IMG/VR virus record: IMGVR_UViG_3300028646_000003 | Coordinates: 110,086 to 130,085 of that record | DNA length: 20,000 nt | Source: an uncultured virus (IMG/VR IMGVR_UViG_3300028646_000003) | Lineage: Duplodnaviria; Heunggongvirae; Uroviricota; Caudoviricetes | Reading direction: 5' to 3' (one strand) | Part shown: positions 5,548 through 18,808 of the stretch, in pieces | How positions within the stretch are numbered: the stretch's first letter is position 1 | Layout of the letters: every line of letters begins with the position of its first letter | Notes under the pieces: generated by a model | Told to the model about the DNA's origin: nothing | What the model saw: the letters and a program-made list of their open reading frames with translations, nothing else | The model's database searches: none | Program-made: the position numbers and the translations under genes

Positions 5548-7442
5548 TTATATAGAATTGAAATTTACTGATGAAACAAATGTTGGTGCTGTTGACCAAT
5601 CAACTTGTGGTGCTTGCTTATTAACTATTCCGTCACGTCTAAGGTTTTTTAAATGCCAAGCTAACATTACCATTGTGTAAGCTCTATCATCATGCATTTT
5701 ACTCTTTTTATCAGGAGGCAGTTCATATTTATAATTTATATCATCACCTTGTCTTCTTATTGCAATTAATTCTTCTTTTGCGTTATCAATTTGCTTTAAT
5801 GCCAATTCTTCGTCCCAAGATAGATTGTATTGTTTATAATCTATTGATTTTACCTTTTTCTTTTCATTCGTATCCTCATCAATTTCTTCAATCTCTTTTC
5901 CTTCCTGTGGTAGACTTAAGTACCCTTTCATATCATAATTATCTGTAAATTCAATTAGTCCTAAATTTAATAATTCTACAAAATCATCATACATTTCTGT
6001 TTTATATTTTTTAGGTGATACTAATTTTAATTTTCCTACTGCATTCGGATAAGAATTTACATGTTCAGCACAGGCTTCTTTATCAATTAATCCCCTATGT
6101 TTATTTCCTTGTTCATCTTCCCAGTCGTCCATAAAATAATCTGCGATTATCGGACCACCACCTCCTGAACCAGCATCAACTAGTAAACAATCTATATTCT
6201 CATAATCAGCCTTGCCTTTTCCGTTATAATTTATTAGCATTTGTTTTATCTCTTTAATTTGTTCTGGCGTTCTCATTGGAGTTTTTTTCTTTTTCCCTAA
6301 ATCCACAAGACTTACACAGTTTTGAATTATTAATTTCCATCCAACTTGTTCATCATATATATATTCTCCTACTGATGTCGCTGAATTATCATAATCATGT
6401 GCTGGATCATATGAAATTGCAATGTGTCTTTTTATATTTCCTTCATTAATTAATAATGGTTTTCTAACTGATGAATTTTTCATAATTACTGCACGTTTTA
6501 TAGGTTGTTTATTTCCACCATCAGCATCAAAACGATTAAAATATTCTCGATTTGCTTTCTCTGAGTTTGACCTTATTTCATCATCAACTTTAGATTGTGA
6601 TAACAATGGTATATTTAATTTTTTACCTTTTAATGTAGCTCCTATTATAACCTCACAATTTAAGTCAGCTACAAAATGGTCTTTACTTCCTGCAAACATT
6701 AACTTTGCCCACTCTTTATATAATGTATAAAATGCAGAATCCGTACTACTAGCAGATGAACAAAACAATAATTGATTAGGAATATTCATCGGTATAGTTT
6801 CGGTGTTTATACCACCACCTAACTTAAACGACGAATCCTGTGTACAAAATGATTTTGTAACTGAAATATAGTTTTCACTTATGAAACCACTTTCATCATA
6901 CAAATTTAAATTTGATCTTTTCCCTCTAATATTATCTTCTTCCCCAGAAACAGTAGTAACTTGACTGTTGTTAAATAGCTTACATCTAAATCCTTGAGGA
7001 GAGTGAACAAATCCATCATGGTTAGCACTTGCAGAAACTTCTCCTAAAAATATATCTGTTAATCCACAAAAAGATTCTATTTGTTTTTTTGCTATTGACT
7101 CCATTTTAAGTTGTCAAAGAAAGGTATCTTGGCTTTGACTTGCGGTTAATGAAAGTATAAAGCTTTGAAAGTTTGGAAATAACATCATTTTTGTCATTAT
7201 AAATGGAGAACTTAAAGTTGATTTACTCAGCCTCCATTACGAGACATCAACCATAATGCAAATTGTTTGCTCCATGATTCTTGAAATGTATATTTTTGAT
7301 AATCCATAAGTTCAAGTCCCAACACTAATTCTGCGAACTTTACAGGATTTCTTCTTCCCCATACAAGTATTTCATTGTATTTTAAATAACCTTCTAACTT
7401 TTTTTGAGTCAAATTACCTTTATTTATAATTGTGATACCCAT
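5548..7442 (-). CDS. terL: Terminase large subunit, interrupted twice by short TGA-led inserts (7225-7229 and 7108-7116); reconstructed about 626 aa
   Basis: Segment 1 (7442-7230) ends LMSRNGG. Segment 2 (7224-7117, different frame) reads KSTLSSPFIMTKMMLFPNFQSFILSLTASQSQDTFL. Segment 3 (7107-5548) reads KMESIAKK...IRGKRSNLNLYDESGF (Walker B)...YDPAHDYDNS...VDAGSGGGG...HDDRAY (nuclease). Joining restores Walker A SRNGGKST. Confidence 0.9.
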
Positions 7443-9054: not shown

Positions 9055-10416
9055 TTAATTAGCAACTTCTAATTTTTTTAATATTTTATTACTTCTATAT
9101 TGTTCTTCTAACTGTTCGTCAAATGCTCCTTCAAAAAATCTAATTAAGAACTCATCAAACTGACTATGTGTATTTCTTCCATATCCATAATTTTGATGAA
9201 ATATTTTATGATATTCTTCTTTCATACATTTCCCTAATGGATACCTGTAATGAATTTCTGTACATTTACATATAATTTGTTTTATTTCCATATCTGTATA
9301 ATTACTTATAGTTTCATATATAGGTAATTTTAATTCTTCTAAAGTATCTCTAACTATATTATCAAAACTATATAAGTGATGAATATGATCAAACCTTTCC
9401 CCTGTAATAATACATTTGAAATTGCATTCTTTCATACTATCTAATTTCCATTGGTTAATATTTCTTCTTAATTCATTTTCTATATTACTAATTCCACCTT
9501 TATAATTAGGATTTAAACTACCAAATCTTGCAGAACCAAACATTGGATTATTTTCGCCTTTTGATTTTCCATTTTTAAGTCGAGTCTCACTTATTTTATT
9601 TCTCCATTCCTCAGTTTGTGCGTCATTTGTTGCTCTTAATTTACTTTCATCACTTTTATGTAAATTTAAACTATGAGCTTTATCCATAATTTGATTAATT
9701 GTTAAATGTGGGAAAAATTCATTCTTCATTTCATTATTGGTCATATCTGAATAATTATTTTGAATAATTATTACTTCTTCATCTTTCCATATGTATGAAT
9801 CAGATATTGCATAGTTCTCACCTTTACATTTTTTGCATACGTTTCTAAAACCATCACTACAAGTATTATCTTTTGGAAAATATAAAAATTCTAATGGTAA
9901 ATATTCATTACAGCACTTGCATAATTTGTATCTTTTGCCTTTAATGTCTTTATATTTTATTTTGTCATAATCTTCTACTACATTATTTATTTTATATAAT
10001 CCTAGTTTTTTACTCATATGTAATACAGATTTTTCAGTACGATTAACGCTAAGCAATGGAATTATCTCTTTGATTATTAATTTATTATAATTAGCTATAA
10101 TAATATCTTTATCCCTTTGACTCCATGTATCTTTCTCATTAGAACAATTTAAACACTTAGACAAATATCCATCTTTAGCTTTAGCATATAATCCAAATTC
10201 TGATACCTCTTTTTTAATATTACAACATTTGCAAACTTTATATCCATCTTTAGCATAGAACTTTTCTCTATATTTAATTTCTTGTTCTGTTTTTGCTTTA
10301 TTCCTACAAGCTTTACATGTATTTTCAAAACTTCCATTTTTGTTTTTATAAAAATTTTCCTCGTTTAATTCTTTTTCTTGTCCACATTTTTTACATTTTC
10401 TTATTTCCATAATCAA
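9055..10416 (-). CDS. Modular HNH (homing) endonuclease with Zn-finger repeats and NUMOD-like motifs
   Basis: Three CxxC...CxxC repeats, two W(S/K)xxxxxII-type repeats, TEEWRNKISETR/GENNPMFG/NPNYKGG motifs, C-terminal CIITG...HIHHLY...YHKIFHQNYG HNH-like core. Confidence 0.7.
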   Translation of the reverse strand: MIMEIRKCKKCGQEKELNEENFYKNKNGSFENTCKACRNKAKTEQEIKYREKFYAKDGYKVCKCCNIKKEVSEFGLYAKAKDGYLSKCLNCSNEKDTWSQRDKDIIIANYNKLIIKEIIPLLSVNRTEKSVLHMSKKLGLYKINNVVEDYDKIKYKDIKGKRYKLCKCCNEYLPLEFLYFPKDNTCSDGFRNVCKKCKGENYAISDSYIWKDEEVIIIQNNYSDMTNNEMKNEFFPHLTINQIMDKAHSLNLHKSDESKLRATNDAQTEEWRNKISETRLKNGKSKGENNPMFGSARFGSLNPNYKGGISNIENELRRNINQWKLDSMKECNFKCIITGERFDHIHHLYSFDNIVRDTLEELKLPIYETISNYTDMEIKQIICKCTEIHYRYPLGKCMKEEYHKIFHQNYGYGRNTHSQFDEFLIRFFEGAFDEQLEEQYRSNKILKKLEVAN

Positions 10417-13659: not shown

Positions 13660-14256
13660 TTATATAATTATTTCATCAGCAACATTTAATTTTAAAGCAG
13701 TAGCACCATCCATATAAAAGTCTTTATTACTCTTTGTATAGCTATCAAATTGTTCTTTAGTTATACCTGTTTTCTCAGTTATTAAATCAACTATTAACTT
13801 GTACCATCTATCGCATTGCTCTCTATCATTTACAGTATCTTGATATGTCTCAGTACCGTATCTAAATCTATTCCATTGGTGTCACATTAAATCACTTCTC
13901 TTATATACAAATCTTTTAGATCCACATATAAATATTTTGAATGCCATTGAATAAGCATAGCTTGTACAATATGTATGAATTTCTATCCCTTTATTAATGT
14001 AATATTCCATTAGGTCACAAAAATGCATTCCATCAACTAAACTTCCTCCTGGAGAAGCTATGATTAATTTTATTGGTGTTCTATCTTCCTTGCTCAATGA
14101 TAGTTGTTTAGTGGCAAGTTTCTTTAATTGTCTTGATAACATTATTATAAATTCAGTTGTAATTTCATCATCAATATATAGTGTATTATTATCTTTGTAA
14201 TCTACTAATTTGATTTCTTCTAGCAATAAATTCCGTTGTTGATATACTTCTCCCAT
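13660..14256 (-). CDS. ClpP-like protease with an in-frame TGA (13882-13884) just before the catalytic His; 198 codons if read through
   Basis: PIKLIIASPGGSL, AYSMAF (catalytic Ser), KRFVYKRSDLM*HQW, continuing in frame ...EKTGITKEQFDSYTKSNKDFYMDGATALKLNVADEIII-TAA, which matches the ClpP C-terminal D.YM...A...G..D.I pattern. Confidence 0.85.
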
Positions 14257-16096: not shown

Positions 16097-16186
16097 TGGA
16101 GGAGAGTGAGGGATTCTAACCCTCGATACGAATAAACGTATGCTGATTTAGCAAACCAGTGCATTCGGACACTCTGCCAACTCTCC
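16097..16186 (-). tRNA. tRNA-Ser(GCT), long variable arm, encoded CCA
   Basis: Acceptor GGAGAGT/ACTCTCC; anticodon arm CTGGT-TTGCTAA-ATCAG; variable arm ATACG-TTTATT-CGTAT; T arm GAGGG-TTAGAAT-CCCTC; 3' end TCCA. Confidence 0.92.
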
Positions 16187-16865: not shown

Positions 16866-17057
16866 TTATTCTTCAGATGGTATATCATTATCCTTTTTAA
16901 TTGTTACAGTTAGTCCGTCTTCTCCAATCCATTTTCTAATTTGATTTGTTAGATTGTATGTTTTAGAATCATCTTTTCCAACTTCTGTAATCTTAAATTC
17001 TCCATCTTCCTCAGTTATTACTGCTTTTGAAAAACTTACATTTTTAGTTTCTTTCAT
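16866..17057 (-). CDS. YonK-like small phage protein
   Basis: 63 aa; ITEVGKDDSKTYNL...GEDGLTVTIKKDNDIP resembles SPbeta YonK in size and pattern; AAGGTGGAG RBS. Confidence 0.6.
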   Translation of the reverse strand: MKETKNVSFSKAVITEEDGEFKITEVGKDDSKTYNLTNQIRKWIGEDGLTVTIKKDNDIPSEE

Positions 17058-17059
17058 AA

Positions 17060-17182
17060 TTATTTCTCCACCTTTTCGTTATTCTTTTTCTTTTCATTTA
17101 ACATTTTAATTGGTTGGTTTTGTAAATTATTTAAGGACTGATAGTTAAATCCTGATAATGTACGCTTAGTTGAATTTTTCAT
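17060..17182 (-). CDS. Small 40-aa ORF below the track cutoff
   Basis: AAGGAGAG RBS, then MKNSTKRTLSGFNYQSLNNLQNQPIKMLNEKKKNNEKVEK-TAA; fills the gap between the MBL and YonK-like genes. Confidence 0.5.
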   Translation of the reverse strand: MKNSTKRTLSGFNYQSLNNLQNQPIKMLNEKKKNNEKVEK

Positions 17183-17215
17183 TCTATTTCTCTCCTTATT
17201 TCTACATTAATTTGT

Positions 17216-18691
17216 TTATAAAATGAATTGTGAAGCAAATTTACTTACTCCTACAATTTTAGTTGTTTTATTTTTACTTTGTAGATATTCAGTTCCCTTT
17301 TCTTTCATTTCAATTTTTCCTTCTTCAGTACAATGGTGTATTAGAATCTTATTTGTGTTTATTTGACTCCAGTAGCTAAAAATTTCTTCTTGTTGAATGT
17401 GGCTCGAAAATGTTTTCTGAGTAAGAACATCACAACTTTTTATTAATGTACTTCCATCAATTTTAATAGGAGTGCCTATTGGTCTAGTAACTAATTCATG
17501 AGAAATTGAACCTTCAGCTCCGTAATATCCTACGAAACAAATTAGATCTCCTGTAACTCCCATAAAATTTTTAACATAGTCACAACTACGTGTTTTAGGT
17601 TGAACAAATCCACTAGAACTTATGTAAATTCCACATTCTCTTTTAGATAATATTCCCAAAGTACCTTTATATTCTTTATTATAACGAAAATTCTTCCAGT
17701 TTTTTATTCTCTCCCAGTCCTCAAATTCATCATATTTTAATATCTTGCTATAAGTATCACATATAGAATTAGTTAATCTTCCATCAATTGTTACTGGTAT
17801 TTCATTAAACCATTCTTCATCTTTAAAAAACGAATTTATTAAAAATTGTAACTCTTGGGTACGCCCGAAAGAAAAGGAAGGAAAAAATACTCGGTGTCCA
17901 CTTTTTAAATATTTAGTTAAAGTTTCTTTTAGTTCATTTCTTTCTTTTTCTACTAAATTTTTATCAAAGCACTTTTCAGAGTTTGAATAAGTTGCCTCAA
18001 AAACGTACATTGAAGCCTTAGGAATTATATCTCTTTTCTTTACAAATGGTTTATATTTTAAATTGTAATCTGATCCCAAATCGCTTGTGTAAACTAAGGA
18101 TTTTATATTATTGTTAGGTAGTCTAAAAGTAAGTTTCAATTGAGTACCACCTAATACATGTCCAGAATTATAAAATTCATAACTTAACCAATCATCAAAT
18201 TTATATACTTGATGTGTTTCAACTGTTTTTACCTTCTCTAACATCTTATACATATCTAATTCAGTATATAAGTTTTTAGGTCTTTTCCCTTTTGCTTTTA
18301 AACCTTTTATTAAACAATCATGTAAATACACACTATCTTTTAATAATTCTTTAGATATCATTAAACATTCTTCTGTTGTAATTATTTCACCTTTGAATAT
18401 ATCTTGTCCAAATATAGGTGTGTTCCCAATATGGTCTACTCAGACGTGGGAGTGCATTAAAAACACTCCCGAAATACCTCCTACTGGAATATTTTCAACC
18501 ATTTTTTTATTCATTGAATATTCTATCTCTGGTTTTGATTCTCCTTGTATCATGCCACATTCTAGACAAACGCATTTATGTTTGTCATTTCCTATAGGAT
18601 AGCTAATTAATAAAGCAGATCCACAAATATCGTCCCTACTTCCACCGACAAAACTTAAAATTATATCATTATCCTTATTCTTTTTGCTCAT
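17216..18691 (-). CDS. Metallo-beta-lactamase / beta-CASP (CPSF/RNase J-like) hydrolase, interrupted by a 6-nt TGA-led insert in HxHxDH; reconstructed about 489 aa
   Basis: N-terminus LSFVGGSRDDICGSALL, LECGMIQ, FLMHSHV*VDHIG, continuing in frame through TPIFGQ...EECL into the 381-aa ORF with SGHVLG, YTSDLG, EATY, PSFSFGRTQE, SSGF, FSSHI, ILIHH. Confidence 0.9.
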
Positions 18692-18808
18692 AAGTAAGTC
18701 TCCCTCTATTATATATTATGTCTATTGACAAAGTGAATAATAGTCAAAGAGAGACTTAATATAAGTAAAACTCAATTAAATCTCTTTTGATATATCCAAT
18801 TTATTTAA

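Follow-up and report, generated by a model that had tools for sequence, protein, structure and literature searches.

The DNA analysed here, referred to as the window, makes up the final 20 kb of a viral contig of 130,085 bp (IMG/VR record IMGVR_UViG_3300028646_000003, positions 110,086 to 130,085; 27% guanine plus cytosine (GC), estimated 74% complete). The real genes of the window are all encoded on the minus strand, with strong Firmicute-type ribosome-binding sites (RBS). One of them, at 18691-17216, encodes a protein of the beta-CASP metallo-beta-lactamase (MBL) family and carries an in-frame TGA at codon 84: an open reading frame (ORF) extends from 18691 to the end of this stop at 18440 and is followed by 407 open codons up to a TAA at 17216. 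An earlier note on this DNA had proposed that ribosomes hop over the stop, and the elements of the gene, named according to that proposal, are as follows.

18443..18691, minus strand: ORF1 of the nuclease gene, from the ATG at 18691 to the putative take-off codon GTC at 18445-18443; 83 codons, ending ...LMHSHV, with the RBS GAGGGAG upstream
18448..18470, minus strand: 5' stem-loop of 8 base pairs (bp), GGGAGUGU at 18470-63, a 7-nucleotide (nt) loop UUUUAAU at 18462-56 and GCACUCCC at 18455-48
18443..18445, minus strand: putative take-off codon GTC (Val), the rarest Val codon of the genome (3.9%)
18437..18442, minus strand: six extra bases, the stop TGA (18442-40) and the putative landing codon GTA (18439-37)
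18434..18445, minus strand: weak take-off mini-hairpin GUCU-GAGU-AGAC, 4 bp, -2.5 kcal/mol
17216..18436, minus strand: ORF2 of the nuclease gene, from the putative resume codon GAC (18436-34) through DHIGN... and the Beta-Casp domain to the TAA at 17218-16; 406 sense codons

Read on the minus strand, the site is CAC TCC CAC GTC TGA GTA GAC CAT (H S H V stop V D H), the codons lying at ATG 18457-55, CAC 18454-52, TCC 18451-49, CAC 18448-46, GTC 18445-43, TGA 18442-40, GTA 18439-37, GAC 18436-34 and CAT 18433-31. This reading and these coordinates bear out the Val-stop-Val arrangement inside the HxHxDH motif of an MBL/beta-CASP gene that the earlier note had described. The first ATG after the stop is found at 18361, 27 codons downstream, and has no RBS.

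The assignment of the gene to this family was supported by a match to the Pfam Beta-Casp model PF10996 (30.9 bits, cut-off 27.7) and by a match to phrog_36352, a phage-specific branch of beta-CASP nucleases of unknown function, that covers residues 3-464 and thus runs across the stop. The solved relatives closest to the uninterrupted homolog P0004 were INTS11, archaeal and eukaryotic CPSF73 and the Thermus RNase TTHA0252 (E ~1e-20), and the His residues of the C-terminal motifs were invariant in the nuclease alignment A3. Judged by its sequence, the gene is a member of the beta-CASP metallo-beta-lactamase nucleases, with motif 2 intact only if the 6 nt are skipped. It shares the Beta-Casp domain with nucleases of the CPSF73, INTS11 and RNase J type but, unlike these, falls in a phage-specific branch, and its substrate may be RNA or DNA.

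The evidence that six bases are extra came from the homologs of the nuclease. The best 120 of the 211 proteins with E <= 1e-10 were examined, and the motif was sought within 160 residues. A plain HxHxDH was found in 53/53 full-length relatives (~485-507 amino acids (aa)), none of which had an in-frame sense insertion at the motif; the other 67 proteins comprised 5 calls starting just before xDH, 10 shorter partial calls and 52 forms of ~600-636 aa, for which the motif lies outside the 160 residues searched. The canonical motif was likewise present in 7/7 uninterrupted homologs seen as DNA. Where the window reads HSHV*VDH, four distant phage homologs read HVH-QDH, HAH-QDH, HAH-IDH and HAH-ADH, and close uninterrupted relatives read HSHVDH (P0007, P0009, P0044) or HSHIDH (P0005). 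Because these full-length and uninterrupted homologs all carry a plain HxHxDH, the 6 nt in the window are extra, and the claim that skipping exactly these bases restores HSHVDH is matched by the three relatives that have this very sequence without interruption. The bases are, as far as sequence comparison can tell, a non-coding gap whose omission restores conserved protein sequence, as expected for a translational bypass.

The gene is under purifying selection in its interrupted form. L005, a 9%-diverged relative of the window gene from a different contig, showed 139 differences over 1476 nt and neither indels nor a further stop, while CACGTCTGAGTAGACCAT was unchanged. By Nei-Gojobori counts the synonymous rate dS was 0.537 and the nonsynonymous rate dN 0.026 over the whole gene (omega, their ratio, 0.048), with an omega of 0.088 upstream of the stop and of 0.043 downstream of it (96.3 synonymous and 24.7 nonsynonymous changes in 407 codons). 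The 26 codons from the stop to the first ATG showed 4 synonymous differences and 1 nonsynonymous one. By these counts strong purifying selection acts on the part of the gene that follows the stop, and an omega of 0.04 downstream of the stop lends only indirect support to the idea that both ORFs would be made as one polypeptide. The longest run of identical codons between the two genes was 28 codons (60-87) and included the stop (permutation P of 0.002 for a run at the stop, 0.03 for one anywhere), which would fit a constraint acting on the RNA. With this run, and with a core that comes back in independent lineages, the feature goes beyond what chance would give.

For each homolog, the 45 nt that precede the take-off codon were folded and compared, setting three independent interrupted lineages against seven uninterrupted genes, which is a small sample.

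Window: -16.6 kcal/mol, z -3.4
L005 (same sequence): -16.6 kcal/mol, z -4.3
L036: -16.9 kcal/mol, z -3.7
L032: -9.8 kcal/mol, z -2.3
Seven uninterrupted homologs (L035, L033, L034, L006-L009): -3.1 to -7.2 kcal/mol, z +0.4 to -1.0

A stable 5' hairpin was thus present in 3/3 independent interrupted lineages (z -2.3 to -4.3) and in 0/7 uninterrupted homologs, and in each interrupted lineage its 3' arm stops 1-2 nt before the take-off codon (2 nt in the window). The earlier note had drawn attention to the 8-bp stem at 18470-18448 as built from unusual codons, and had named its covariation among homologs as something to check. The stem is indeed there, is absent from 7/7 uninterrupted homologs, and its codons and the take-off codon are rare within their synonymous sets (TCG 2.7%, TCC 2.7%, GTC 3.9%, GTG 7.8%, CAC 16.7%). 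As to covariation, two fully compensated pairs distinguish the L036 stem GGCUGUGU/GCACAGCC from that of the window, GGGAGUGU/GCACUCCC, with Gly GGA changing to Ala GCT and Ser TCC to AGC, and L032 has at the same place a stem unrelated in sequence, UGUGAAU/AUUCACA. The take-off codon was GTC in 3/3 independent interrupted lineages (window/L005, L032 and L036) despite accounting for 3.9% of Val codons, and the same Val position is GTT in L035 and GTA in L033, both uninterrupted. The 5' stem and the rare take-off codon therefore track the interruption. An NKK(M/L) sequence, considered as a nascent-peptide signal that might prime take-off, is conserved ~20 residues before the take-off site; as the uninterrupted relatives have it too, it speaks neither for nor against such a signal. 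An Rfam scan of the window returned tRNA only, with no known RNA family or intron.

Two of these interrupted lineages are less similar to the window than L005 is. L032, ~38% identical and located on a different 147-kb phage contig, reads GGT CAT TCA CAT GTC TGA GTA GAC CAT GTT; it shares the 15-nt core of the window while the flanking codons are different, so that the synonymous Val codons on either side of the stop, seen by the earlier note in the window, recur in this homolog. L036, ~60% identical, reads CAC GTC [TGAG] GAT CAT, a 4-nt frame-shifting insert that is followed by 409 intact codons. A TGA directly follows GTC in the window, L005, L032 and L036, and a cognate GUC-to-GUA landing is available in the window, L005 and L032. 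In a quick maximum-likelihood tree of 65 C-terminal parts (P0015, a duplicate of L036, and P0043, which is too short, were left out), no fewer than 3 gains or losses are required to account for the four interrupted rows confirmed as DNA, with the uninterrupted P0044 as sister of L032 and the uninterrupted P0010 as neighbour of L036.

Protein databases hold what look like further pieces of interrupted genes. There were nine clusters of N-terminal fragments, 67-86% identical, of which three end directly after HSHV/HSHC, five continue out of frame after HSHV for 7-38 codons, and the ninth, a 57-residue piece, ends earlier. Five C-terminal calls (90%, 50%, 41%, 40% and 39% identical) start a few residues before xDH, and across the family at least 10 C-terminal fragment clusters extend to the normal C-terminus. 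As these clusters are known from protein only, their inserts could only be back-translated, which would give inserts of 7 nt and 5 nt that lack a zero-frame stop, besides longer inserts led by TGA. A search with one back-translated pattern for the DNA of the variants without a stop gave no match. A scan of metagenome contigs returned 3 loci only, one of them a copy of a known contig, and a DNA pattern derived from VFxMHSHV hit 7 loci in viral contigs, namely 4 known copies and 3 unrelated chance matches. The exact core pattern CAYGTNTGAGTAGAYCAY occurred in 25 viral and 90 genome stretches, about the chance level for a 31-bit pattern; among 105 loci with CAYGTNTGAGTAGAYCAY, 11 had a His two codons upstream, and only the 5 known phage loci were real. 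Four of the six cellular loci (L119, L137, L140 and L107) were translated and discarded as junk frames in DNA of 59-65% GC, and the remaining two were discarded for stops in the flanking frame.

The comparative evidence supports the interpretation of the earlier note, and we lean, with some reserve, towards the view that the full-length nuclease is made by a UGA-triggered Val-to-Val ribosome hop, a miniature of that of T4 gene 60. A ribosome would arrive with GUC in its P site while UGA occupies the A site. As a rare codon that is probably wobble-read, GUC would pair weakly there, and termination at UGA would be slow enough for the peptidyl-tRNA-Val to detach while the mRNA slides by 6 nt. The 5' stem-loop, whose 3' arm would lie just behind the P site, may push the mRNA forward by re-forming at the exit. 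The tRNA would then re-pair with the fully cognate GUA and decoding would resume at GAC, giving HSHVDH; in low-GC bacteria one tRNA-Val with a modified U34 reads both GUC and GUA. Ribosomes terminating at UGA would release an 83-residue fragment. Because hop and termination would be in competition, the nuclease is probably held at a low or regulated level by this site, or at one tied to release factor 2. The sequences themselves show the extra bases, their conservation, the purifying selection on the gene and the way in which the stem and the rare take-off codon go with the interruption; that ribosomes hop, how efficiently they do so, what the stem contributes and whether the site serves regulation is what we infer from these features.

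The nuclease is not the only disrupted gene of the window.

5548..7442, minus strand: large terminase-like gene with two TGA-led inserts
13660..14256, minus strand: ClpP-like prohead protease gene with an in-frame TGA at 13884-13882 beside the catalytic His; the CLP_protease match, 28-197, spans the stop

In the terminase-like gene, which bears a signature like that of the nuclease, the insert at site A is TGAGT (5 nt, 7229-7225), which lies in Walker A and shifts the frame (AAT GGA GGC [TGAGT] AAA TCA ACT), and that at site B is TGACAACTT (9 nt, 7116-7108; TTT CTT [TGA CAA CTT] AAA). Both were absent in the same 5/5 aligned relatives (L022, L023, L027, L025 and L026), which read SRNGGKST or SRGSGKTT at site A and DTFLK, ETFMK or ECFLK at site B, and omitting the inserts restores the Walker A motif or the sequence of the relatives. 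A third site, C, in the N-terminal region, is intact in the window and in L025 and is interrupted elsewhere (locus positions ~1790-1800), with GAA [TGAG] TTA in the 88% relatives L022, L023 and L027 and GAG [TGAA] TTC at the same position of the 55% relative L026, so that one position is interrupted in relatives sharing only 55% identity with each other. Here the landing codon would overlap the stop (GAA-U-GAG, GAG-U-GAA), and overall the triplet before the resume codon was synonymous with the codon before TGA in 3/4 terminase inserts. A tblastn search of the terminase against a phage collection gave no match. The TGA of the ClpP-like gene is a substitution and not an insert, since TGC (Cys) stands at this codon in G004, a relative with 85% identity. 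Both a simple nonsense mutation and a UGA/Cys pair are conceivable here, and no hop geometry fits.

A heuristic scan of five contigs for further interrupted genes returned mostly false positives from weak RBS calls, and its length cut-offs missed terminase sites A and C. It flagged one candidate micro-gap outside the window, at G000 24178-24180 on the plus strand, where TGA closes an ORF of 68 codons and a frame of 139 codons takes over at +4.

A protein of 453 aa encoded two genes upstream of the interrupted terminase (9055-10416, minus strand) matched HNH/endonuclease VII-like and Lar-like PHROG families, and may act as an endonuclease of the homing type. On contig G006, an HNH_3-like gene (24.4 bits, cut-off 24.8) lies at 20789-21643 (L047:789-1643, minus strand), directly downstream of that contig's interrupted MBL gene. 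No nuclease domain was found in the neighbours of the MBL gene in the window or in L036, and a link between inserts and endonuclease genes is only suggestive.

Natural examples of programmed bypassing are few: T4 gene 60 and its relatives, the bypassing elements (byps) of yeast mitochondria, and a terminase candidate in phage Hau3. The gene 60 cassette was shown to be mobile, to split a metal-binding site and to shield DNA from the MobA endonuclease (Manning and Atkins preprint). Like this element, with its 50-nt gap and MobA, the insert in the window splits the metal-binding site of a phage enzyme, and, again as in gene 60, numerous phages carry the cassette at a single position (Manning and Atkins preprint; Atkins 2016 review). 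The differences are considerable. The gap in the window measures 6 nt and not 50, keeps the frame and is too short to contain an internal Shine-Dalgarno sequence; the host gene is a different one, the sequences are not homologous, and the window has no endonuclease within or next to the nuclease insert. A gene 60/MobA cassette related by descent was therefore rejected on account of the other host gene, the 6-nt gap and the lack of an endonuclease domain flanking the MBL gene in the window. Of the stem-loop signals of gene 60-type bypassing, the 5' hairpin is present and the take-off hairpin is weak in the window. A stem-loop that re-forms at the exit has been discussed for gene 60 (Atkins 2016 review; Manning and Atkins preprint), where, in contrast to the present family in which the 5' stem tracks the interruption, the 5' stem-loop was found not to be conserved between clades (Manning and Atkins preprint).

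Streptomyces phage Hau3 carries 10-nt UUA-led inserts, including one in the terminase, which would abolish function even if a 1-nt frameshift occurred; the signals proposed were a 5' stem-loop and a Shine-Dalgarno sequence, and a junction peptide in E. coli supported bypassing (PMC10732093). Very short inserts in phage genes, the terminase among them, are thus common to Hau3 and the present phages. In Hau3, a high-GC actinophage, the trigger is described as a hungry sense codon, UUA, tied to the supply of the host bldA tRNA (PMC10732093). The phages studied here, in contrast, have a low GC content, a UGA stop as putative trigger and gaps of 4-9 nt, and a nuclease provides the best-supported case. 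The mitochondrial byps of Magnusiomyces capitatus offer a parallel to terminase site A and L036; they differ from the window in being mitochondrial, in having an unused codon in the A site, in being described as context-independent and in their longer inserts. These byps are 27-55 nt long.

Stop hops of +5 and +6 were reportedly observed in E. coli by Weiss et al. in 1987 and in later work. In such synthetic hops the peptidyl-tRNA re-pairs with a matching codon just past the stop, so that 9 nt specify one amino acid, and according to the Atkins 2016 review no natural case of in-frame stop hopping was known. The GUC-UGA-GUA geometry is exactly that of the synthetic stop hops, which were engineered, low-level events. 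The full-text literature searched, which does not cover subscription journals, contained no account of UGA-led gaps of 4-9 nt in the nuclease or terminase genes of phages.

Several observations weigh against the hop. The hairpin over the stop that the earlier note had noticed does exist, but with -2.5 kcal/mol in the window it is weak; L036 has a 7-bp hairpin beginning at its take-off codon. Two inserts are without a cognate landing codon, namely those of L036 (GUC, then GAG) and of terminase site A (GGC, then AGU). None of the three terminase sites has a 5' stem, and folding there showed no association with the interruption (z -0.9 to +0.3). The protein-inferred variants P0122 and P0126-P0129 have no zero-frame stop at the junction and do not fit a strictly stop-triggered hop. 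In L023, a 4-nt deletion ~34 nt after the TGAG insert restores the frame, keeps the TGA in frame and scrambles 12 residues, so that a hop would give a dead product; either read-through is needed in this copy or the copy is decaying. The 28-codon identical run could also be a recombination tract, in which case the insert may be younger than the split between the window gene and L005 and the argument from omega would be weaker. Finally, one identical copy of the window region bears a provirus classification, and a simple nonsense difference is seen in the ClpP-like gene, so some decay in this phage would be compatible with the data.

Among the other explanations, read-through of the UGA by a near-cognate tRNA (Trp or Cys) or as selenocysteine, giving an HSHV-X-VDH enzyme that works, perhaps at a low level, fares best, although we regard it as unlikely. 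The 6-nt insert is in frame in three lineages, the TGA of the ClpP-like gene against the TGC of its relative makes a Cys/UGA pair, and the compensated frameshift of L023 leaves its TGA in frame, all of which read-through would accommodate. However, 0/53 full-length relatives have extra residues in the motif, and read-through is unable to rescue L036, because its 4-nt insert shifts the frame, or the 5-nt terminase insert, which does the same. It also leaves the duplicated Val codon, the rare GTC and the 5' stem unexplained, and neither a separate hairpin 3' of the UGA, as in a bacterial selenocysteine insertion sequence (SECIS), nor a suppressor tRNA was predicted.

That the gene is non-functional, the insert having inactivated a dispensable gene in a decaying or recently damaged phage or prophage and its conservation reflecting recent spread, seems quite unlikely to us. 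The provirus classification of one identical copy, the two terminase disruptions and the ClpP-like nonsense codon in the same phage, the possibility that the 28-codon run is a recent recombination tract and the existence of close uninterrupted relatives of the interrupted forms would all agree with it. An omega of 0.04 with no further stop or indel in 407 codons is hard to reconcile with decay, as are the at least 10 C-terminal fragment clusters that extend to the normal C-terminus and the combination of a compensated stem with the rare GTC in three lineages, the stem being found in 0/7 uninterrupted homologs. In addition, the four disruptions of the window are all TGA-led and lie in or beside catalytic motifs or conserved sequence, a pattern that random decay would not produce.

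Removal at the level of nucleic acid, in which the 6 nt would be lost from part of the DNA (by GT..GT slippage) or from the mRNA before ordinary translation, is very improbable. The insert does lie between 2-nt repeats and within a small palindrome. Contigs of four runs were placed on 17100-18800. One, X22, had no cover at the site; the DNA-run contigs X18 and X21 covered the insert without gaps, and a 151-nt contig from a metatranscriptomic library spanned 18401-18551 with 0 differences and 0 gaps. No joint or form lacking the 6 nt was therefore seen in the contigs of the three runs covering the site, but since contigs lose rare variants a minor repaired form is possible. As an RNA library can moreover contain DNA, the result favours a translational mechanism only weakly. 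The retention of the 6 nt in the RNA-library contig also leaves without support the suggestion of the earlier note that the nuclease might process the inserts. The window holds no known RNA family or intron, and we know of no process that removes 4-9 nt of differing sequence.

We give least weight to a split enzyme, in which the 83-residue N-fragment and a separately initiated C-fragment would assemble into an active nuclease. The gene 60 element provides described cases of genes that are split at metal-binding sites and form functional complexes (Manning and Atkins preprint). The C-fragment, however, needs the Asp-His directly after the stop, and no ATG, GTG or TTG precedes them; the first ATG lies 27 codons downstream without RBS, and the 26 codons between are conserved. 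The out-of-frame variants (7-38 codons) would moreover give N-fragments with junk tails. Split topoisomerase subunits do assemble in some T4-like phages, which offers an analogy for such an enzyme.

Other candidates were rejected. Genome-wide recoding of TGA is at odds with its use as a normal stop elsewhere: it closes 14 of the 132 purine-rich ORFs (>=60 codons) of the contig, many with ATGA overlaps followed by an RBS and start, no more than a handful of ORFs fuse when it is read as sense, the 130 kb yielded only 4 TGA interruptions, and the contig has no suppressor tRNA, its sole tRNA being Ser-GCU. A bacterial selenoprotein was dismissed since homologs have no residue at all here, no separate 3' hairpin was predicted and the 4-nt variant shifts the frame; Rfam gave no SECIS match in the window, though it may have no bacterial SECIS model. 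A sequencing artefact is excluded by the same sequence in at least 5 assemblies. Identical copies of the interrupted gene in other assemblies are L002-L004, and 21 peat-metagenome runs contain half or more of the gene's sampled words, although these may be from one campaign and may include the source sample. Quadruplet decoding was considered and dropped, transcriptional slippage was dropped for want of a homopolymer, and an intron or intein because the insert is far too short.

If the nuclease and terminase sites are read together, large low-GC phages may tolerate, and perhaps exploit, UGA-led micro coding gaps of 4-9 nt (possibly up to ~17 nt) in catalytic motifs, the beta-CASP HxHxDH and the terminase P-loop, that are hopped by ribosomes. 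We advance this joint reading tentatively and with less assurance than the hop in the nuclease alone. Under it, the nuclease would be the first natural in-frame stop hop, with a co-evolving 5' stem-loop and a dedicated weak take-off codon, and the gaps could have been gained repeatedly by spoiling the DNA targets of homing endonucleases or by tying enzyme output to host release factor 2 activity. If true, a 6-nt hop with compact co-varying signals would be the smallest natural bypass cassette (<60 nt), and gene callers would be systematically splitting or discarding active phage enzymes; the protein database already contains at least 8 N-terminal and at least 5 C-terminal fragment clusters of this nuclease family. 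Gaps that recur in catalytic motifs would also be relevant to the ways in which phages guard conserved DNA against selfish endonucleases, and to the question whether phages sense the termination capacity of the host.

The origin and surroundings of the gene offered few further clues. A blastn search of the nuclease gene against a phage collection gave no match, and a profile scan for MBL relatives in named genomes returned 19 pattern matches and 0 relatives, hence no clue to the host. A genome-wide nucleotide comparison of G005 with the window phage showed a highly mosaic relationship, with 8.6 kb alignable. On contig G001 (20961-39648), the window region is copied identically and the sequence runs 18.7 kb past the end of the window contig, at 25% GC; the record is classed as a provirus. 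The tRNA-Ser (anticodon GCU; 90 nt; 16097-16186, minus strand) is the sole tRNA of the 130-kb contig. In the window the nuclease gene is followed by a small YonK-like gene (16866-17057, minus strand; E ~5e-4, below the Pfam cut-off), and a YonK-like gene also follows the MBL gene in the 60% relative L036 (L036:2440-2634), so that the gene pair is conserved.

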